A stretch of 9,683 bases of DNA from a virus (Duplodnaviria; Heunggongvirae; Uroviricota; Caudoviricetes). The position numbers and the translations under genes are program-made. Positions 1,189 through 9,683 of the stretch are shown piece after piece. The stretch is from IMG/VR virus record IMGVR_UViG_2802429242_000007; one strand, given 5' to 3'. Every line of letters starts with the position of its first letter. The first letter of the stretch is position 1. Below the pieces are notes generated by a model. The model ran no database searches and had not been told where the DNA came from. It was given only the letters and a program-made list of their open reading frames with translations.

Positions 1189-1533
1189 TCAGAACTCTTC
1201 GATATTCCAGCCACCACCTGCTTTCTTTGGTTTAACCGTTACCCCGATGATTCGGAACGGATACTGATCTGCGGCGACTTTGGTTTTCACCCTGGCGTCG
1301 TCGGTCCAGAAACCTTTCACTTCGTGCAGTTCCATCTCTCCGGTGGCGAGCATCACAGCGAAATCGGGCGTATAAAACGTGTTGTCAGCCAGCCGCAGCT
1401 TGATACCCTCGAACCGATACCAGGCGACTTCCCCTGCACGTTTACGCTGCTCAAGGTGCTGGCAATACGCAGATTCTGTTTTGTTCATCTGGCCTGTTTT
1501 GAGTCGACCAAGAGCCTGTATCTGTTTTCTCAT
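1189..1533 (-). CDS. small PD-(D/E)XK-type nuclease, DUF1064-like (114 aa)
   Basis: 114-aa ORF with a D...E-x-K signature (YTPDFAVMLATGEMELHEVKG) typical of restriction-endonuclease-fold phage nucleases; ATG 1533..1531 with AGAGGT 7 nt upstream. Family is from memory, not searched. Confidence 0.5.
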   Translation of the reverse strand: MRKQIQALGRLKTGQMNKTESAYCQHLEQRKRAGEVAWYRFEGIKLRLADNTFYTPDFAVMLATGEMELHEVKGFWTDDARVKTKVAADQYPFRIIGVTVKPKKAGGGWNIEEF

Positions 1534-1650: not shown

Positions 1651-2436
1651 TTACTTGATAAATCCTGCTGCCTTTCCTCGCCTGTATTCCTCCATCAGCC
1701 ACTGCGCCGGTGTTATTCCCCCCAGGGTGGCGGCGTTAGGCATGCACCCGAAACTTCGCCCTGGTGGATGGTAAACATCTCTCCCTGTGTCCGGAGGCGT
1801 ACTCATGGGTTCTGGCTTTGCCTGTATGCTGATCACCGGATCGGGTATCTGCTGTCCGGAAGCCACCTTTTTCGCCCAATCATCGAGCAGCCTGCGCGCG
1901 TGTTTCTCAACCTCAATCTCGCTAAGCTGGCGCTGATACATTGCACGGCGGGTATCACATACGACCCAGTACATAACCGGATGCCGCCACGGGAATCTTT
2001 CGGGACCACCAGGATATAAACTTTTTTCCTTGCTGTACCGGTGAAACTCCGCCATCACATCGTCAATGGTGACGCCAAGAACCATCTTGCTGTCTTTACA
2101 CCACTTGATGAATTGCCCTGGCGACGGCCAGAACGGAGACTCACTGGCGCGGGCGTGGCGCATACCAGCAGAAACCTGTTCACGGGTTCGGATCCCCCCT
2201 TCGGCAAACGCAGCAATCCACTGCTGTTTTGCAGCAACTTCCTGCTCTGGCGTCTTCAGGTTGGTTACCACTGCCGCCGGAAAGAGTTGTTTCAGCTGTT
2301 TGAAAAGGGCATCAACAAGCCTCTCTGCTGACATGTTCACCACGTTGTCATTGTTGGTGTACTGATGCTCATAACCTGACATGCGAGAAAGGGCTTCTCC
2401 GTCACGGTTTTGTATCGCGGTAAAAACGTTGTTCAC
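1651..2436 (-). CDS. lambda P-like replication protein (helicase loader)
   Basis: Translation contains ...FPAAVVTNLKTPEQEVAAKQQWIAAFAEGGIRTREQVSAGMRHARASESPFWPSPGQFIKWCK..., closely matching the remembered conserved core of lambda P (FLPSPGQF..WC). Start preferred at GTG 2436..2434 (GTGA overlap with the O-like stop) with a perfect GGAGGA 6 nt upstream, rather than the track's ATG at 2451. Confidence 0.85.
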   Translation of the reverse strand: MNNVFTAIQNRDGEALSRMSGYEHQYTNNDNVVNMSAERLVDALFKQLKQLFPAAVVTNLKTPEQEVAAKQQWIAAFAEGGIRTREQVSAGMRHARASESPFWPSPGQFIKWCKDSKMVLGVTIDDVMAEFHRYSKEKSLYPGGPERFPWRHPVMYWVVCDTRRAMYQRQLSEIEVEKHARRLLDDWAKKVASGQQIPDPVISIQAKPEPMSTPPDTGRDVYHPPGRSFGCMPNAATLGGITPAQWLMEEYRRGKAAGFIK

Positions 2437-3248
2437 AAGAAATCCTCCCATGCTTCAGGGCTGTTCCAGTGCGGAACGTTGTTATCAGGTAATGTTGATT
2501 GCTTCTGTCTGCTAATCTGCAGCCGCCTTGCCAGCTTCTGCTCCCACTGTGCCTGATGGTATGCCTTACCCTCAGCCATCCAGTAAATTCTGAACTCTGC
2601 AAGTTCCTGTGCCGTTGGCAGACTGTCCAGGTAGATCCCCTGCAATGAGCTTTTCCGAAGAAAGTCATCTGATGGCTGCCATTGTTCATGCATGACAAAT
2701 TTGCCTAATTGCCCTGGCCCACCAGGAGGAACAAAGTTATTCATCACGGCGTTGTTTGCACCGGGGTCATGAGGCACAGAATCCCCGCTTTTTGTCCTGC
2801 TCTCCCTCTCTTGGTTAAATGACTGGTTATATGACTGGTTCTGGATCCCGTTTTTGGGATCATTCAACATCCCGTTTTTGGGATCATTCAACATCCCGTT
2901 TTTGGGTATATTCCCGTTTTCGGGAACATTGCCGTTTTCGGGTTCATTGCTCCCTTTCCGGTTGCCTTTAATGTTCCCGTTTTTGGTTATATTAAGAGAG
3001 AAAACCCGCACTCTTTTCGTCGCTCCCTTTCTCTCTCCGGTATCTGAAATAAGCCCCATTTTCATGAGCAATATAAGCCCGGCCTGCACGGTTTTTTTAT
3101 TCAGGCAAGTGTCTTTAACGAGGCGTTCTATGCTGGGGTAGCAGAGGTTATATTCATCGGCTCTGTCAGCCATCGAGAGCAGTATGAGCTTTAATGACGA
3201 GCTACCTGGATCTGTCTCCCAGGCCCAATCTGTTGCATGTCTGCTCAT
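2433..3248 (-). CDS. O-like replication initiator: N-terminal winged-HTH, Asn/Gly/Pro-rich repeat linker, C-terminal DnaT-like domain
   Basis: N-terminus WAWETDPGSSSLKLILLSMADRADEYNLCYPSIERLVKDTCLNKKTVQAGLILLMKMGLI resembles the replisome-organizer HTH; C-terminus ...MHEQWQPSDDFLRKSSLQGIYLDSLPTAQELAEFRIYWMAEGKAYHQAQWEQKLARRL resembles the DnaT C-terminal domain. ATG 3248..3246 with GGAG 7 nt upstream. The iteron array lies inside the gene, as ori-lambda lies inside O. Confidence 0.8.
   Translation of the reverse strand: MSRHATDWAWETDPGSSSLKLILLSMADRADEYNLCYPSIERLVKDTCLNKKTVQAGLILLMKMGLISDTGERKGATKRVRVFSLNITKNGNIKGNRKGSNEPENGNVPENGNIPKNGMLNDPKNGMLNDPKNGIQNQSYNQSFNQERESRTKSGDSVPHDPGANNAVMNNFVPPGGPGQLGKFVMHEQWQPSDDFLRKSSLQGIYLDSLPTAQELAEFRIYWMAEGKAYHQAQWEQKLARRLQISRQKQSTLPDNNVPHWNSPEAWEDFL
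2845..2990. repeat. iteron array (candidate origin of replication) inside the O-like gene
   Basis: 24-bp direct repeats start at 2845, 2869 and 2893 (the first two identical: atcccgtttttgggatcattcaac). Degenerate copies follow at 2912-2925 (TCCCGTTTTCGGGA, itself palindromic), 2931-2942 and 2975-2986. Core motif is CCCGTTTT(T/C)GGG. Confidence 0.75.
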
Positions 3249-3263
3249 GATTAATCTCCGCTA

Positions 3264-3464
3264 TCAGCTTGAATGTTGTGGGGAGGAATTAATCATGATC
3301 TGCTTAATCTCTGCCCTGATGCGACGGTTTGATTCCATGGTGCACTCAACACAGTGTCCGTTGTAAACCCAGCGTTCACTGTCATGTCCGTGCTTACATG
3401 GTTTTCCGGTGTAGTAGCGTTTAAGTCCGCGCTTTGCGGCATCAATACGTGTAATGATTTCCAT
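3264..3464 (-). CDS. small zinc-finger (Cys/His cluster) phage early protein, 66 aa
   Basis: MEIITRIDAAKRGLKRYYTGKPCKHGHDSERWVYNGHCVEC... carries a C-x-H-x-H...C-x2-C cluster. It sits between the Cro-like gene and the O-like gene, the position of cII in lambda. Start chosen at ATG 3464..3462; the track's TTG start at 3527 adds a hydrophobic low-complexity extension. Function not assigned. Confidence 0.5.
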   Translation of the reverse strand: MEIITRIDAAKRGLKRYYTGKPCKHGHDSERWVYNGHCVECTMESNRRIRAEIKQIMINSSPQHSS

Positions 3465-3544
3465 GGTAAGCCCTGTTATTAGTATTGGGATTACGGTTAT
3501 TTTGTGCTGACACAAAAAAAAGATCAACCATATTTGGTTTTTTA

Positions 3545-3559
3545 TTACCTTTGAGGTAC
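3545..3559. promoter_or_regulatory. operator-like site (TTACC-tttga-GGTAc) between the terminator and the zinc-finger gene
   Basis: A 9/10 match to the TTACC-N5-GGTAA motif. On the minus strand it lies just upstream of a possible promoter (-35 TTGATC, 17-bp spacer, -10 CAAAAT). Confidence 0.4.
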
Positions 3560-3565
3560 GAATAG

Positions 3566-3593
3566 ATATGAAAAGACCGCCGGATGGCGGTCT
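3566..3593 (-). terminator. intrinsic terminator downstream of the Cro-like gene (tR1-like position)
   Basis: On the minus strand, 21 nt after the stop: AGACCGCC-atcc-GGCGGTCT (perfect 8-bp GC-rich stem, plus 3574-3593) followed by TTTTCATAT. Confidence 0.6.
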
Positions 3594-3614
3594 ACAGAGG
3601 GTTGTGGCTGGATA

Positions 3615-3845
3615 TCATGAGTAGAAGAAGTATGCCAGTTCTGCTTTTGAGCGCAGCCATTGTCTTGTTTTACAGGCTTTAAAAAGCCCATTCATCAATA
3701 CCTTACCTGGCATTTTGCGCTTACCTGTTAAGTGAGTCTGGATATAGTGACTCGTCGTTCCGGCTTCCTGTGCGAAGGCTTCACGCTCATCCGGAGTAAG
3801 TGCAAGCCAGTGCTTTTTGAAATCGAAATGTCCGTTATCGCTCAT
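3615..3845 (-). CDS. Cro/CII-like small HTH DNA-binding regulator, 76 aa
   Basis: First gene of the leftward operon, divergent from the repressor. An HTH-like segment (REAFAQEAGTTSHYIQTHLTGKRKMPGKVL) is visible. Functional role is inferred from position. Confidence 0.6.
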   Translation of the reverse strand: MSDNGHFDFKKHWLALTPDEREAFAQEAGTTSHYIQTHLTGKRKMPGKVLMNGLFKACKTRQWLRSKAELAYFFYS

Positions 3846-3870: not shown

Positions 3871-3944
3871 ATAATAAATATTCACCTATAAGGTAACAAA
3901 AATCAAGGATAGTTACCCACGAGGTGCATTTACCTGTTGGGTAA
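3871..3944. promoter_or_regulatory. divergent control region: three operator sites plus a leftward PR-like promoter
   Basis: Sites TcACC-tataa-GGTAA (3882-3896), TTACC-cacga-GGTgc (3913-3927) and TTACC-tgttg-GGTAA (3930-3944). Leftward promoter on the minus strand: -35 TTGTTA (3899..3894), 17-bp spacer, -10 TATTAT (3876..3871), overlapping the first site. A weaker rightward promoter may overlap the third site. Confidence 0.55.
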
Positions 3945-3999
3945 TATTGCTTTAAATTGAATCATCTTCTGATTCAGATATGAGGCGATTTTCCAGAAA

Positions 4000-4584
4000 A
4001 TGAAAAGTATCCAGGACGTCCGCAGGCAAAATCTCAACGACTTGATCGACCGTGAATTCAATGGTGTTCAGACGCGGATGGCTGAAAAACTTGGAACTCA
4101 GGCAAATCTGGTAAACCGCTGGGCTCTTGGCAAGAAGGTTATCGGCGACCAGGTTGCACGAAAAATTGAAGCTGCCGCCAATAAACCCCGTAACTGGCTT
4201 GATATCGATCGCTCGCTTTCTCAGGAAGGTTTTCAGCCTGTCGGCCCAAGCGACATTGGCCAGCTGGCGGCTCACAACCTGGAACGCTGGATGAGCGAAA
4301 GCCGCGACCTTTCAACACAGGGAAAACTTCACCGCGCATCCGGCGTAGCCCAGGTGACAATCAGCCGCCTGTTAAACAATGAGGTCAGCGTTTCCATTTC
4401 CACCCTGGAGAATGTTGCATCCGCATTCGGGCGTCACGGCTATGAATTACTGATTCACCCGCACGACCCTGCGACCATCAACTATGATCGCTCGCGCTAC
4501 GCATTGTTACCCGAAACCGAGAAAGCAAAGATCGAAAGTTACATTGAATTTGTCATCAACCAGAACGAAAAAAACAAACAATAA
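4000..4584 (+). CDS. CI-like immunity repressor with two XRE-type HTH domains and no S24 peptidase domain, 194 aa
   Basis: Two HTH-like segments: QTRMAEKLGTQANLVNRWALGKKVIGDQVARKIEAAANKPRNWL and LSTQGKLHRASGVAQVTISRLLNNEVSVSISTLENVASAFGRHGYEL. No Ala-Gly/Ser...Lys autocleavage module is visible. Divergent from the Cro-like gene and flanked by operator clusters. Confidence 0.7.
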   Translation: MKSIQDVRRQNLNDLIDREFNGVQTRMAEKLGTQANLVNRWALGKKVIGDQVARKIEAAANKPRNWLDIDRSLSQEGFQPVGPSDIGQLAAHNLERWMSESRDLSTQGKLHRASGVAQVTISRLLNNEVSVSISTLENVASAFGRHGYELLIHPHDPATINYDRSRYALLPETEKAKIESYIEFVINQNEKNKQ

Positions 4585-4604: not shown

Positions 4605-4630
4605 AAGCCGCCTTATGGCGGCTTTTTTAT
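4605..4630 (+). terminator. intrinsic terminator after the repressor gene
   Basis: AAGCCGCC-ttat-GGCGGCTT (8-bp stem) followed by TTTTTTAT, 20 nt after the stop. Confidence 0.7.
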
Positions 4631-4640
4631 TGCCTATTCG

Positions 4641-4718
4641 ATTACCTAACGGGTAATTTTTTTAACTCATATCTATTGACATCAAACCATATACGCATAA
4701 TTATTACCTCAACGGTAA
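4641..4718 (+). promoter_or_regulatory. promoter-operator cassette (PL-like) for the rightward operon: operator sites 4641-4657 and 4704-4718 flanking a sigma70-like promoter
   Basis: ATTACC-taacg-GGTAAT (4641-4657) and TTACC-tcaac-GGTAA (4704-4718), starts 62 bp apart. -35 TTGACA (4676-4681), 17-bp spacer, -10 AATTAT (4699-4704). The geometry matches the 1537-1614 cassette exactly. Confidence 0.6.
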
Positions 4719-4737: not shown

Positions 4738-4890
4738 ATGCAGTGGAAAATCATCAACGGTTGGTACTGCGTTACTGCATGCGGATTCATGAGCTGGAAG
4801 TTCCGCACCTTACAGGAAGGCATTAAGTGGGCTTTCGTCAGCAAAGAAGCTCGCGATGTGGCCAACGATAACGAGATATGGGAGGGCTGA
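4738..4890 (+). CDS. small Trp/Cys-rich protein, 50 aa, first gene of the rightward operon
   Basis: ATG 4738 with GAGGT 8 nt upstream; MQWKIINGWYCVTACGFMSWKFRTLQEGIKWAFVSKEARDVANDNEIWEG. Not in the ORF track, probably because of a length cutoff. The stop lies within the next gene's ribosome-binding region. Confidence 0.45.
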   Translation: MQWKIINGWYCVTACGFMSWKFRTLQEGIKWAFVSKEARDVANDNEIWEG

Positions 4891-4892
4891 TA

Positions 4893-5192
4893 ATGAACGT
4901 TAATCAGCAGAAAAATCTTCAAAAAATCATGCTGGCATTCGACAAGGACTACCGCCTGTCAGAACAGCTATATGACCGACAAGTTGAACTGATTGAGAGC
5001 ATCCGACTTCATCAACTGTCCTCAACTTTCGACGTTGTAACAGGCAAAGGCGTTCGTCAGGAAGTACTGGAGGCTGCTAAAGACAGCCCTGAGTTCGAAG
5101 AACTGATGGATGCCTATCGGCGAGAGGCAATGGCAATTATCGCCCGCTGGGATCTGGCTGATCAGCTTGATGGGCAGAGGGACGCGGCATGA
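4893..5192 (+). CDS. hypothetical phage early protein, 99 aa
   Basis: ATG 4893 with GGAGGG 6 nt upstream (the track's start at 4878 is less likely); stop overlaps the exonuclease ATG (ATGA at 5189-5192). Confidence 0.6.
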   Translation: MNVNQQKNLQKIMLAFDKDYRLSEQLYDRQVELIESIRLHQLSSTFDVVTGKGVRQEVLEAAKDSPEFEELMDAYRREAMAIIARWDLADQLDGQRDAA

Positions 5193-6010
5193 AACCGGGA
5201 ATTTATTTCGACATCAGCAACGAAGACTACCACGCCGGTGACGGCGTGAGTAAGTCGCAACTGGACATGGTTGCCAAGAATCCGGCGCTTCTTAAATGGG
5301 TTCAGGCAGCACCAGAAGACGAAGAGAAAAAGTCTGCACTGGATATGGGAACCGCATTGCACTGCCTGCTTCTGGAACCTGGAGAATTCGACAAACGCTT
5401 CATCGTTTCACCGAAATTCGATCGTCGGACGAAACAAGGTAAAGCTGACGAAGAGGCATTTCTTCGTGATGTGGCGGATATGGGGATTACGGTACTTGAT
5501 GCCGAGCAGTGGCGGAAACTGGAGCTGATGCGTGATAGCGCAATGGCTCACCCGGCGGCACGCTGGATGCTGGAAGCCCCTGGTTACTGCGAAGCATCAA
5601 TGTACTGGAACGATGAAGATACGGGTGAGTTGTGCCGCATTCGTCCAGACAAATGGCTGAACGAGCACAACGTGATCGTCGACGTGAAAAAGGTTGCAGA
5701 TATGGACCGTTTTGCACGCCACATCGAGGAATTCCGCTACCACGTGCAGGACGCAATGTACCGCGAAGGCGCAATGAGGGTTACTGGTCAGCCGCATGGT
5801 TTTTTCTTTCTTGCCGTGAGCGAAAGCATTGATTGTGGTCGATATCCGGTACGCGTGTTCGAGCTGGATGCGCCGGATGTCGATGCCGGGCACGCTCTGT
5901 TCCGCCGGGATCTGAATACCTATCACGAATGCCGCATCAACGATGAGTGGGGCGGAGTGGAAATTATTAAACGCCATGACTGGGCACGTAAACAGGATAT
6001 GTACGTATGA
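5189..6010 (+). CDS. PD-(D/E)XK exonuclease of the RecE (exodeoxyribonuclease VIII) C-terminal-domain type, 273 aa
   Basis: N-terminus MKPGIYFDISNEDYHAGDGVSKSQL and an internal D...VDVKK motif fit the RecE-type nuclease domain as I recall it; ATGA-coupled to the downstream annealing protein, as in recE-recT. Confidence 0.7.
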   Translation: MKPGIYFDISNEDYHAGDGVSKSQLDMVAKNPALLKWVQAAPEDEEKKSALDMGTALHCLLLEPGEFDKRFIVSPKFDRRTKQGKADEEAFLRDVADMGITVLDAEQWRKLELMRDSAMAHPAARWMLEAPGYCEASMYWNDEDTGELCRIRPDKWLNEHNVIVDVKKVADMDRFARHIEEFRYHVQDAMYREGAMRVTGQPHGFFFLAVSESIDCGRYPVRVFELDAPDVDAGHALFRRDLNTYHECRINDEWGGVEIIKRHDWARKQDMYV

Positions 6011-6888
6011 GCAATGATATCGCAATCACATCACAACCAGGCGCAACTGTAGGTACTGCTGCGGCAATCTTCAGCCCGGAGGGCATGAATCAACTGGTGC
6101 GTTTCGCGGAGTTGATGTCACAAAGCAAAGCGACTGTACCGAAACATCTTGAAGGCAAACCTGCCGATTGTCTGGCGGTGACCATGCAGGCGGCACAGTG
6201 GGGAATGAACCCTTTCGCCGTGGCGCAGAAAACGCATGTGGTAAACGGAACGTTAGGCTACGAAGCACAGTTGGTAAACGCGGTCGTATCCTCTTCCAGC
6301 CTGCTAGCGACACGCCTGAATTATCGCTGGAGCGGTGACTGGTCGAATGTTAACGGCAAAACAGATAAATCACCGAATCTGACGGTAACTGTGTCAGCAG
6401 TTCTTAAAGGAGAAGCAGAACCCCGTGAGCTTACCATCAGTATGGCGCAAGCCGGAGTGCGTAACTCTCCATTGTGGGAACAGGATCCGCGCCAGCAACT
6501 TGCCTATCTTTGCACGAAACGATGGGCTCGCCTGCACGCTCCTGATGTACTTCTCGGTGTTTACACCCCAGACGAATTACAGGAAACGGCACCGCGCGTT
6601 GAGCGAGACATTACTCCGCAAACGACTACTGCTGCGGGAATGAACAGTCTGATCAACGCTAAACCAGCGAAAAAGCATGATGAGCAAACGCGTAAAGCGG
6701 ATAGCCGTGATCCAGAAGAAATGCTGATGGCCTTTACCAGCGCAGCGATGAATTACAGCACTGTCTCCGAACTGGATAAGGCTTACAAATACATTGCACA
6801 AAAACTTTCAGATGATGACGAACTGCTGGCAAAAGCCACCGACGTTTACAGCGTTCGTCGGGAAGAATTAAACGAAACATCTATGTAA
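6007..6888 (+). CDS. RecT/Red-beta family single-strand annealing protein, 293 aa
   Basis: Core ...CLAVTMQAAQWGMNPFAVAQKTHVVNG... resembles the RecT/Bet conserved region, and an ERDITP motif is shared with my recollection of lambda Bet. Sits immediately after the exonuclease with an ATGA overlap. Confidence 0.75.
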   Translation: MSNDIAITSQPGATVGTAAAIFSPEGMNQLVRFAELMSQSKATVPKHLEGKPADCLAVTMQAAQWGMNPFAVAQKTHVVNGTLGYEAQLVNAVVSSSSLLATRLNYRWSGDWSNVNGKTDKSPNLTVTVSAVLKGEAEPRELTISMAQAGVRNSPLWEQDPRQQLAYLCTKRWARLHAPDVLLGVYTPDELQETAPRVERDITPQTTTAAGMNSLINAKPAKKHDEQTRKADSRDPEEMLMAFTSAAMNYSTVSELDKAYKYIAQKLSDDDELLAKATDVYSVRREELNETSM

Positions 6889-8432: not shown

Positions 8433-9683
8433 TTATTCCCCCGCCATCCACTTCTCAAACTTCGACGGGGAGAACGGAATCAGATCCGTATGCTCCCCGT
8501 CAATCCATGAATCAATCATATCGGCCCACTGCTGCAACATGTAGGCGCGCTGTCTGGCGTATTCCGCTTTGTTATATACGGCGCGCACACCTTTCTGCTC
8601 ATGTGCCAGAGCCTTTTCAATCCAGTCTGAAGGATAACCAGCCTCATGCAACAACGTACTGGCTGTACGGCGCATATCATGTACAGTGAAGTCCTGAATA
8701 TGCTCACCATCTTCATTTATTATTTTCACCGTTCTGTCGATCAGAGAGTTCAGCGCGGCATTAGATAATGGCTTCCGGAAATTGTAACGACCAGGAACCA
8801 GATATTCACTTCCACCAGCGCACATCTGCAACCCGACCAATATATCCTGTGCCTGTTTAGGCAGGTAAATAACGTGCGCCCGGCTTCCCTTCATGCGGTC
8901 TGGAGGAATTGTCCATGTCCATTTTTTAAAATCTATTTCATCCCACGTTGCATTGGTGAATTCGCCCTTACGAACCATAGTGATAAGCACCAGTTTTAAA
9001 GCCATTTTCATAGTGCCCATAGCACCAATGGCATCCAGCGTGCGGAAGAACAGGCCAATTTCTTCTGGTGTCAGTGTTCGCTCTCGTGGTTTAAATATGG
9101 CGATAGACGAAGGTTTAATGTCAGCCGCAGGATTAAACAAACCATGACCACGGTCATTGGCGTGACGGTATACGCTACTGATGATCTCCCTGGCCTGCAC
9201 TGCTGTTGCCCGGCCACCGCGTTCGACAATCCGGTCACACAAATCACGAACCATCGATGTGGTAATTTCAGCCATCATTTTATTGCCAAGAGCCGGAAGT
9301 ATGTCACGGTCGATCACCGCCTGTTTCATTGCGCGGGTACTGTCAGCCAGGATGACGTGTTTCATATAACTGTCGGTATGTACCGCAAACGTCTCGGCAC
9401 CACGAATCTTTTTGATACCGTCACGTTTAGCCGCAGCCGGTGACTGGCCTGCTTTAAGCAGCTTCTTTGCAGCAATCAGTTCTTCTCGCGCTTCTGCCAG
9501 GCTGATACCGTCACGCCCATACTGCCCGATTACCAGTGTTTCGCGGCGACCGTTGATACGGTAGTCATAGCGAAACGAGACCGTGCCTGACGTAAGCACA
9601 GCTACATACAGCCCGTCACGATCGGAGACCTTGTACAGTTTGTCCTGCGGCTTGAGGTTTTTTAATTTTGTATCGGTAAGCAC
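8433..9683 (-). CDS. int: tyrosine site-specific integrase, P4-like family; 5' end at or just beyond the window edge
   Basis: 416 codons; N-terminal arm-binding-type sequence (LTDTKLKNLKPQDKLYKVSDRDGLYVAV) and a C-terminal catalytic region with the H-x-x-R box (HDMRRTASTLL) and a Tyr-containing tail (VYNKAEYARQRAYMLQQWADMID). The first in-window codon is GTG at 9683, so the true start may lie 1-3 codons outside. Confidence 0.9.
   Translation of the reverse strand: MLTDTKLKNLKPQDKLYKVSDRDGLYVAVLTSGTVSFRYDYRINGRRETLVIGQYGRDGISLAEAREELIAAKKLLKAGQSPAAAKRDGIKKIRGAETFAVHTDSYMKHVILADSTRAMKQAVIDRDILPALGNKMMAEITTSMVRDLCDRIVERGGRATAVQAREIISSVYRHANDRGHGLFNPAADIKPSSIAIFKPRERTLTPEEIGLFFRTLDAIGAMGTMKMALKLVLITMVRKGEFTNATWDEIDFKKWTWTIPPDRMKGSRAHVIYLPKQAQDILVGLQMCAGGSEYLVPGRYNFRKPLSNAALNSLIDRTVKIINEDGEHIQDFTVHDMRRTASTLLHEAGYPSDWIEKALAHEQKGVRAVYNKAEYARQRAYMLQQWADMIDSWIDGEHTDLIPFSPSKFEKWMAGE

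Follow-up and report, generated by a model that had tools for sequence, protein, structure and literature searches.

The spacer between the cro-like gene and the replication genes of a phiV10-type prophage appears to hold the end of one transcription unit and the start of another. We consider it reasonably probable, judging from the sequence and its conservation, that PR yields a short cro transcript that mostly ends at a hairpin just past the gene, that the replication genes are expressed from a candidate promoter of their own (P_rep), and that repressor bound at 3545-3559, between hairpin and promoter, helps to silence these genes in the lysogen. Over 90-95% of its length, the 9,683-bp stretch of DNA analyzed (hereafter, the window) shares 96-98% identity with Escherichia phages YDC107_2, phiv142-3, and phiV10. 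It covers the early region, immunity functions included, of a temperate podophage of the phiV10/epsilon15 type, genus Uetakevirus, whose namesake is Salmonella phage epsilon15. A 421-bp segment around the hairpin was found in 539 of 5,426 complete E. coli genomes; the prophage is therefore very common.

The integrase gene occupies 8433-9683 on the minus strand. The repressor gene (4000-4584, plus strand) encodes a protein with two HTH domains and no S24 peptidase domain, which matches Pfam HTH_3 and is a homolog of SPC32H Rep (PDB 5D50; E = 4e-42, residues 1-190). Divergent from it, and first in the rightward operon, is the cro-like gene (3615-3845, minus strand), whose product, a 76-aa HTH regulator, is the equivalent of PhiV10p41 and epsilon15 gp39 and matched PHROG_35 ("transcriptional repressor") with an E value of 5.6e-13. 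The replication unit, also on the minus strand, begins with the gene for a 66-aa Cys/His-rich (zinc-finger) protein (3264-3464), which is followed by a DnaT/O-like gene (2433-3248) and a lambda-P-like gene (1651-2451); a DUF1064 gene (1189-1533, minus strand) lies after the third of the cassettes described below. On the plus strand, an operon of the leftward type starts at 4738 and encodes a 50-aa ORF, a 104-aa ORF, RecE-like, RecT-like, AlpA-like, and PerC-like proteins, and a methylase. Pfam gave no match for the cro-like, zinc-finger, or 50-aa proteins, even at E ≤ 5.

The presence of an 8-bp GC-rich hairpin after the cro-like gene, reported in the original prediction, was confirmed. It lies at 3593-3574 on the minus strand and starts 21 nt past the TGA stop codon (3617-3615) of the 76-aa HTH gene; the stem AGACCGCC (3593-3586) and the second arm GGCGGTCT (3581-3574) enclose an ATCC tetraloop (3585-3582). 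The predicted fold is worth -15.0 kcal/mol (z = -5.3), none of 200 shuffles folded as well, and only two sites in the window have eight pairs that include six G-C pairs. Terminator-like matches as a class are not above chance in the window (12, with 9.4 expected). The U-tract (3573-3560, minus strand; TTTCATATCTATTC) is short and interrupted, the RNA tail after the stem reading UUUC AUAUCU, with three to four U residues ahead of the interruption. With a score of the d'Aubenton-Carafa type, the hairpin obtained a positive value of 6.6-16.8, against 25.3 for the terminator that follows the repressor gene (4605-4624, plus strand). Given this moderate score and the short U-tract, the earlier description of the terminator as "strong" was an overstatement; an intrinsic terminator of moderate efficiency, in a phage of the E. 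coli type, is a plausible reading. Transcription from PR would then yield the cro-like mRNA, a substantial fraction of which would stop at 3593-3574.

The hairpin itself is an ordinary candidate terminator, previously annotated, in a well-sampled phage family. The RefSeq record of phiV10 (NC_007804.2) carries a "putative rho-independent terminator" at 33078-33100, between PhiV10p41 and p42, and the p41-p42 spacer is base-for-base the same as the spacer in the window, hairpin included. Two further hairpins, one past the repressor gene and one past the P gene, are annotated in the same record. As phiV10 already has the cro-proximal hairpin annotated, and epsilon15 its dispersed repressor sites, the puzzle of a terminator ahead of the replication genes is not a new one.

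A GC-rich stem was present in every spacer compared, with loops that varied in both sequence and length (ATCC, ACCC, ACTC, GCCT, TTCT, TCCT, TCAT, TCATT, and others of 5-8 nt). Compensatory changes in the stem were few: the sixth pair is A-U, G-U, or G-C, the seventh is G-C, U-A, or A-U, and in the stem core of Scandinavium a G-C pair has become A-U. When all hairpin types were aligned with MAFFT and RNAalifold, two size classes fell out of register, and pairs were therefore counted both on an anchored alignment and on the tetraloop class. In the tetraloop class, 91% of cells were paired (1 of 500 shuffles was as high), double changes occurred at two pairs (a number reached by 27 of 500 shuffles), and the covariation score was 0.138 vs. 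0.080 (4 of 500 shuffles). Covariation thus supports the stem positively but modestly.

Possession of the U-tract differs between clades. It occurs in the E. coli, Enterobacter, Erwinia, P. vulneris, Buttiauxella, and Scandinavium types; in the Salmonella type (epsilon15 and SPN1S) and in the Citrobacter and Klebsiella types, its place is taken by TCCTTCC or TCCTGCC. Salmonella and Klebsiella relatives that lack the U-tract scored -36 to -39, i.e., as non-terminators, and the Citrobacter type likewise scored as a non-terminator, so the terminator problem does not hold for the family as a whole. As the stem is kept in these three types without a U-tract, termination is not its sole conserved role, and 3'-end stabilization of the cro mRNA could be a simple additional one. 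One might go further and propose that RNA stability or processing is the primary function, the stem either protecting the 3' end of the cro-like mRNA or forming the 5' stem of a PRE-like antisense RNA transcribed on the plus strand across cro and into the repressor gene, with termination a clade-specific addition. Retention of the stem, with variable loops, even where the U-tract is missing speaks for such a proposal; we nevertheless consider it very improbable. The antisense version, which leaves a conserved AAAAT downstream, described next, unexplained, is taken up below with the palindrome on which it depends.

We collected an unbiased set of spacers through the Cro-like protein alone. This set contains 16 distinct spacers, drawn from 37 phage records, eight annotated loci, and nine more usable bacterial loci, and it spans Escherichia, Salmonella, Citrobacter, Klebsiella, Enterobacter, Erwinia, Kluyvera, Pseudescherichia, Buttiauxella, and Scandinavium. 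(A search of viral contigs with the Cro-like protein matched only 100%-identical loci.) The columns that are invariant in all 16 form GGTAA, the promoter-proximal half of the operator; GGTTGAT, which holds the hexamer TTGATC; and AAAAT. Divergence is found in the stretch past the stop codon, the hairpin loop, the spacer of the promoter, and the 5' leader. About 90 further spacers, obtained by a DNA pattern search, supplied variants of the hairpin and the operator; since the search pattern fixed both the -35 and the -10, these spacers are no evidence for either hexamer.

The predicted P_rep, identified by a position weight matrix (PWM) scan, consists of a -35 hexamer TTGATC (3527-3522, minus strand) and a -10 hexamer CAAAAT (3504-3499, minus strand) with a 17-bp spacer; across the 16 Cro-derived spacers, the spacing between -35 and -10 is 15-17 bp. 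The pair agrees with the consensus at 8 of 12 positions, among them the A at -11 and the T at -7, and its -10 is without the usual first T. A simple scan missed this promoter because 8 of 12 falls under its cut-off of 9 of 12. In a scan of both strands with a crude sigma-70 PWM (96,480 configurations), PL ranked first, PR second, and P_rep fifth. Transcription is predicted to start at about 3492, which gives a leader of approximately 28 nt, and a CAGGG Shine-Dalgarno sequence is found 6 nt ahead of the ATG at 3464. Thus, the suggestion that the replication genes have their own promoter past the terminator is favored, although the candidate sits at 3527-3499 with a start near 3492, and not at the 3500-3520 originally proposed for the start. 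This candidate is the best-conserved feature of the cro-replication spacer. Moreover, several different leaders and first genes, belonging to alternative downstream modules, join the conserved block at about -10, and joints at that position fit a promoter that would serve any module that follows. Judging from its hexamers, P_rep may be weak or activator-dependent.

Other candidate features of the spacer were rejected. A promoter-like sequence on the plus strand (3507-3534) has its -35 inside the P_rep spacer, which is variable, and relatives do not conserve it; the simple scan gave another plus-strand match at 3591-3618. A 29-codon ORF on the minus strand, with its ATG at 3531, lacks that codon in most relatives, where ACGG or GTGG is found. 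Finally, the sequence TTATCCAAA in Klebsiella and Enterobacter spacers can be read as a DnaA box, but is not conserved in the window or in the Salmonella types.

The replication genes might instead be reached by read-through from PR, with the hairpin acting as a leaky attenuator and the conserved downstream block being either a protein-binding site (AACCAAATATGGTT plus half an operator) or a recombination joint, and no promoter. The short U-tract and moderate terminator score are consistent with such leakiness, and in the Salmonella and Klebsiella relatives, which lack the U-tract, high read-through is to be expected. In addition, the -10 of P_rep is poor, the palindrome that overlaps its -35 recurs at other promoters, and mosaic joints fall at the conserved block. 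What this reading leaves unexplained, however, is (i) why, in the unbiased set, an invariant AAAAT lies 15-17 bp from an invariant GGTTGAT, (ii) why P_rep ranks close behind PL and PR in the PWM scan, and (iii) why the spacer parallels the PL and P3 cassettes (described below), in which a clear promoter follows the terminator and operator. We consider it rather unlikely, and favor expression of the zinc-finger, O-like, and P-like genes mainly from P_rep, which, from its sequence and conservation, would be a sigma-70 promoter.

The repressor operator was defined as the 15-mer TTACC-N5-GGTAA, part of a 15-17-bp palindrome, (A)TTACC-N5-GGTAA(T). At two mismatches or fewer, the window contains 10 matches (2.65 expected), a number that none of 200 shuffles reached; five of these, beginning at 1537, 1599, 3930, 4642, and 4704, are perfect. 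A pattern with a 6-bp spacer gave eight matches (2.7 expected) and missed real sites, and N5 was adopted. The site after the cro-like gene, GTACCTCAAAGGTAAT, has a single mismatch within the 15-mer (3545-3559; TTACCTTTGAGGTAC, or GTACCTCAAAGGTAA on the minus strand). In a PWM built from perfect sites of relatives it ranked sixth in the window, on a par with the OR site at 3882-3896, and the half-site variants GTACC, GCACC, and TCACC were found in OR sites too. The position is occupied, at two mismatches or fewer, in seven of eight phages; the left half of the operator has been lost in the BUCT554, Erwinia, and Buttiauxella relatives. A single operator specificity is common to all relatives. 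We therefore agree with the original prediction of an operator-like site here, and regard 3545-3559 as a credible repressor operator.

Whether a site in this position could control P_rep is a separate matter. Its center lies at about -60 from the predicted start, where an operator does not by itself occlude RNA polymerase, and the partner position downstream (3485-3499; TAACCGTAATCCCAA) is degenerate in this phage, with four mismatches. In Enterobacter phage BUCT554, the equivalent of that downstream position carries an operator with one mismatch. According to PMC9638917, which cites work on SPC32H, the repressor is tetrameric. The related phage ZX5 shares its Cro-like protein with the window and has 97.8% identity to it over the aligned 76%; when the ZX5 repressor was over-expressed, the mRNAs for holin and endolysin fell by more than 99.9%, and free phage were abolished (PMC9782041). 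Repressor control of P_rep through 3545-3559 is plausible on the sequence of the region.

The order of elements in the spacer recurs elsewhere in the window. Each of three cassettes consists of a terminator hairpin, an operator 14-20 bp farther on, an interval of 17-19 bp, a TTGAYN -35, 17 bp, a -10, and a TTACC operator; one is located at PL (4605-4718), one past the cro-like gene (3593-3485), and one past the P gene (1645-1537). The PL cassette, on the plus strand, opens with the terminator after the repressor gene and continues with an operator (4642-4656), a -35 TTGACA (4676-4681), a -10 AATTAT (4699-4704), and a second operator (4704-4718); its promoter is the one ranked first by PWM. The third cassette (P3, minus strand) has a weak hairpin (1645-1634) with a T7 run, an operator at 1599-1613, a -35 TTGATT (1579-1574), a -10 TTTAAT (1556-1551), and an operator at 1537-1551, and ranked 14th; its hairpin is an annotated terminator in phiV10, and its operator is annotated in epsilon15. 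PR (minus strand; -35 TTGTTA at 3899-3894, -10 TATTAT at 3876-3871, within the PR/OR region 3871-3944) has three OR operators (3882-3896, which overlaps the PR spacer, 3913-3927, and 3930-3944).

Alignment of the PL cassette with the third cassette gave z = 7.3. With the P_rep cassette the value was z = 3.4, and the similarity was concentrated in the terminator and operator, which share the block GTA(A/G)(G/A)CCGCC...GGCGG...CTATTCG(AT)TACC-N5-GGTAAT; the 3545-3559 site and its terminator are thus paralogous to the upstream OL operator and its terminator. All eight phages examined have a distance of exactly 62 bp between the two operators of PL and likewise between those of the third cassette, a pairing that fits a repressor, tetrameric according to the source cited above, bridging two sites around a promoter. 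In the cro-proximal cassette the operators are approximately 60 bp apart, and the pair always includes a weak site (the downstream one here, the upstream one in BUCT554).

These distances bear on a further possibility, namely that repressor at 3545-3559 acts as a roadblock, in the manner of a stoperator, stopping polymerases that escape the hairpin and so insulating the replication genes in the lysogen, with no role in initiation at P_rep. The upstream operator does lie just beyond the hairpin (14-18 bp past it in the PL and P_rep cassettes, approximately 20 bp in the third), the order of terminator and then operator(s) is also seen before terS and int in phiV10, and a site at -60 is ill placed for simple occlusion. 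PR, however, is itself covered by operators, so there should be little transcription to block in the lysogen, and the 62-bp pairing of the upstream operator with a start-site operator at PL and P3 suggests repression of initiation by looping. We judge an exclusive roadblock unlikely; such a role is compatible with the explanation that we favor. Under that explanation, repressor bound at 3545-3559, some 60 bp upstream of the P_rep start, would probably help to silence the replication unit in the lysogen. The least certain step is the route, which may be bridging, through the tetramer, to the weak downstream site or to OR, or a block to read-through.

Operators of this type are dispersed over the whole of phiV10, where 14 were found at one mismatch or none (0.72 expected). 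Twelve of them fall in stretches annotated as intergenic: they are found at OL and OR, ahead of int and of the head gene p06, past the cro-like and P genes, between p24 and the antirepressor gene, and in the divergent regions of the tail-fiber and lysis genes. The other two are at the very start of terS, and in epsilon15 and Tyrion the corresponding operators are upstream of the terS start. The epsilon15 record (NC_004775.2, protein_bind features) lists "repressor" sites at OL, before terS, the head gene, and the tail-fiber gene, and after the replication genes; it has no annotated repressor site between gp39 and gp40. The repressor appears, from this distribution and the ZX5 result, to act directly on most transcription units.

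Five nucleotides from the 3545-3559 operator is a second palindrome, the 14-bp sequence AACCAAATATGGTT (3526-3539), which we call motif 2; the P_rep -35 hexamer starts with its final two T's. Motif 2 has three matches in the window (0.38 expected) and, at two mismatches or fewer, five in phiV10 (approximately 0.1 expected), where copies are located before the head gene, at the 3' end of p24, and in the tail-fiber and lysis promoter regions. Copies are present in epsilon15 at three of these four positions (head, tail fiber, and lysis), and Tyrion shares the motif at its head, tail-fiber, and lysis promoter regions and has copies inside the PL and P3 spacers. At two mismatches or fewer, the copies lie 20-53 bp from a Rep operator, the exception being the epsilon15 P_rep copy, whose neighboring site has two mismatches. 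The motif is annotated in none of the records examined.

It is a speculation, and one we hold to be doubtful, that the spacer is a shared regulatory node in which motif 2 either binds a further phage regulator that times the replication and late units by promoter control, as N and Q do by antitermination in lambda, or drives a PRE-like antisense promoter toward the repressor gene. Candidates for the binding protein would be the cro-like protein, the PerC-like activator of the PL operon, the gp49/p55 regulator, and the second HTH domain of Rep. An antisense promoter would also serve the proposal, raised above, that the hairpin is the 5' stem of a plus-strand transcript. On that strand, the palindrome, -10, and operator that make up the core of PL recur in mirror image at 3526-3559, the candidate core being AACCATATTTGGTT, TTTTAT, and a TACC operator. 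Yet the plus strand is without a -35, the candidate was unranked by the PWM, the match that was flagged on that strand (3507-3534) is in a non-conserved register, and the palindrome falls within the PL and P3 spacers in some relatives only.

We found no sign of an N-type antiterminator, in agreement with the original prediction. The 50-aa ORF at 4738-4890, which had been noted as unlike N, has two Arg residues and matches PHROG_898, for which no function is assigned. A scan of all genes in the window for Arg-rich motifs found none at an N terminus, and a search for boxA found none in the PL or PR leader, with four elsewhere in the window (6.8 expected). Rfam, searched with the whole window at E ≤ 1, returned only a chance isrG match far under threshold, and no known RNA element. 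A hidden system, in which an unrecognized protein or a put-like RNA carries PR transcription past the hairpin as N does in lambda, could draw on the several small PL-operon proteins that have no assigned function; furthermore, a regulator gene and a terminator lie ahead of terS in phiV10 and epsilon15, and some antitermination may exist elsewhere in the genome. Besides the negative searches, several points count against it here: the PL leader runs only about 30 nt to the start codon, so that a put-like element would hardly fit there; the hairpin loop varies freely, in contrast to the conserved loop of boxB; and the candidate promoter downstream would make antitermination unnecessary. We consider such a system highly improbable. 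The early region would, on the reading we prefer, be a chain of separately repressed transcription units, and with units of this kind, and operators placed genome-wide, no N-type antiterminator would be needed.

The locus would thus illustrate how a very common E. coli prophage family does without lambda-style antitermination: a terminator bounds each of its short units, and a single repressor, itself controlled by an antirepressor, most likely gates every unit directly. This view should be useful for the annotation of these prophages and for the reuse of their terminator-operator-promoter cassettes. Since public annotations already contain the terminator and the dispersed operators, current understanding is unchanged; the only additions are a weak operator absent from those annotations, a conserved promoter candidate ahead of the replication genes, and a second palindrome that recurs.

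The region resembles that of lambda in its order of cI-like, cro-like, O-like, and P-like genes, in its divergent PL and PR, and in having a termination signal directly after cro, ahead of the replication genes. The lambda signal, tR1, depends on Rho, and N overcomes it through boxA and boxB. The comparison with tR1 made in the original prediction holds for position, but not for mechanism: here the hairpin is of the intrinsic type, N, boxA, and boxB are lacking, and a separate candidate promoter comes next. HK022, a lambdoid phage, passes its early terminators without an N protein by means of put, RNAs of about 70 nt with two stems that are located downstream of PL and PR; no comparable structured leader is present here, at least at PL, and Rfam was empty. 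Among closer relatives, phiV10 has the same hairpin as an annotated terminator, and its record annotates neither the equivalent of the 3545-3559 operator nor a promoter in the spacer. The repressor family and the TTACC-N5-GGTAA half-sites are shared with the Rep/Ant system of epsilon15 and SPC32H; in epsilon15, however, the site after the cro-like gene, which is imperfect in both phages (one mismatch here, two there), is unannotated, as are the OR sites. In apparently having one repressor act directly at many units and intergenic sites, with no cascade from two early promoters, the system resembles P1 C1 and gp71 of mycobacteriophage L5. P1 C1 serves many dispersed operators, which are asymmetric 17-mers, and the L5 stoperators act on elongation and depend on orientation. 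The repressor families are unrelated, and the operators described here, in contrast to those of P1 and L5, are palindromes that are often paired 62 bp apart around a promoter.

Besides the Rep operator (TTACC-N5-GGTAA, the predicted site of the phage repressor), promoter regions carry a recurrent second palindrome, AACCATATATGGTT, which is annotated in no record. The palindrome is located at 3526-3539 in the window, with a weaker copy at 4685-4698, and recurs at 3305, 20539, 20918, 24736, and 33132 in phiV10 (record L222), at 2985, 19937, 24748, and 33749 in epsilon15, and at 21435, 26452, 34215, 35385, and 37308 in Tyrion. When two or fewer mismatches were allowed, phiV10 yielded five sites, relative to approximately 0.1 expected, and copies within this limit were located 20-53 bp from a Rep operator; their placement relative to the -10 element varies by promoter class.

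At P_rep, the predicted promoter of the replication genes, the -10 element and start site constitute a mosaic joint (about 3485-3504), which falls at the same point in the relatives' loci (L102-L221). Here, the conserved hairpin-operator-promoter block is joined to leaders and first genes of four or more unrelated kinds, and, across the window and these loci, the type of hairpin is independent of the module that follows. A third cassette with the order terminator, operator, promoter, operator is found after the P-like gene, at 1537-1645. Its two perfect operators are spaced 62 bp apart, and the Shine-Dalgarno sequence of the DUF1064 gene sits inside the downstream one, 3 nt upstream of the ATG. 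Despite differing upstream replication genes, this layout was identical in all eight phages compared. Tandem repeats span 2812-2950, inside the DnaT/O-like gene (2433-3248), as three arrays lying side by side (12 bp x 2.4; 24 bp x 2.6, with 100% identity; and 18 bp x 3.1) that encode the repeated peptide NGMLNDPKNG; these arrays look like iterons, i.e., a lambda-style origin within the initiator gene.

The repressor (4000-4584) contains two helix-turn-helix domains and carries no S24 peptidase domain. Because it is homologous to SPC32H Rep, induction should proceed through an antirepressor, and not by RecA-mediated cleavage. Elsewhere, phiV10 encodes a Bro-N antirepressor gene and contains a LexA-box-like sequence, CTGTATAAATACACAG. 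An inverted repeat, GAATCA-TCTTC-TGATTC (3959-3975), separates the OR operators from the start codon of the repressor gene and could be the site for another regulator; the likely repressor promoter, PRM (TTTACC-18-TAAATT, 3929-3958; PWM rank 9), is nearby.

Two observations concern the database records. The window carries separate, overlapping RecE-like (5189-6010) and RecT-like (6007-6888) ORFs, whereas a phiV10 record (L001, 6712-8472) annotates a single 1,761-nt "RecE-RecT fusion" gene, a discrepancy that probably reflects a frameshift or a sequencing difference. In addition, a Cro-like protein 100% identical to that of the window is encoded on a 408-bp contig (coverage 0.75) in the myxobacterial assembly of Corallococcus exercitus (NZ_RAVW01000927.1); this contig is almost certainly contaminating E. 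coli prophage DNA.

Outside the window, the rightward operon of both phiV10 and epsilon15 ends with a gene for a 112-aa "transcriptional regulator". Downstream of this gene come a GCCGCC...GGCGGC terminator and a pair of Rep operators, immediately upstream of terS (phiV10 L222, 38766-39104 and 1-120; epsilon15, 39277-39672 and 12-44). As this arrangement of regulator, terminator, and operators before terS recalls that of lambda Q-tR', control of late genes by antitermination is conceivable in these two phages.
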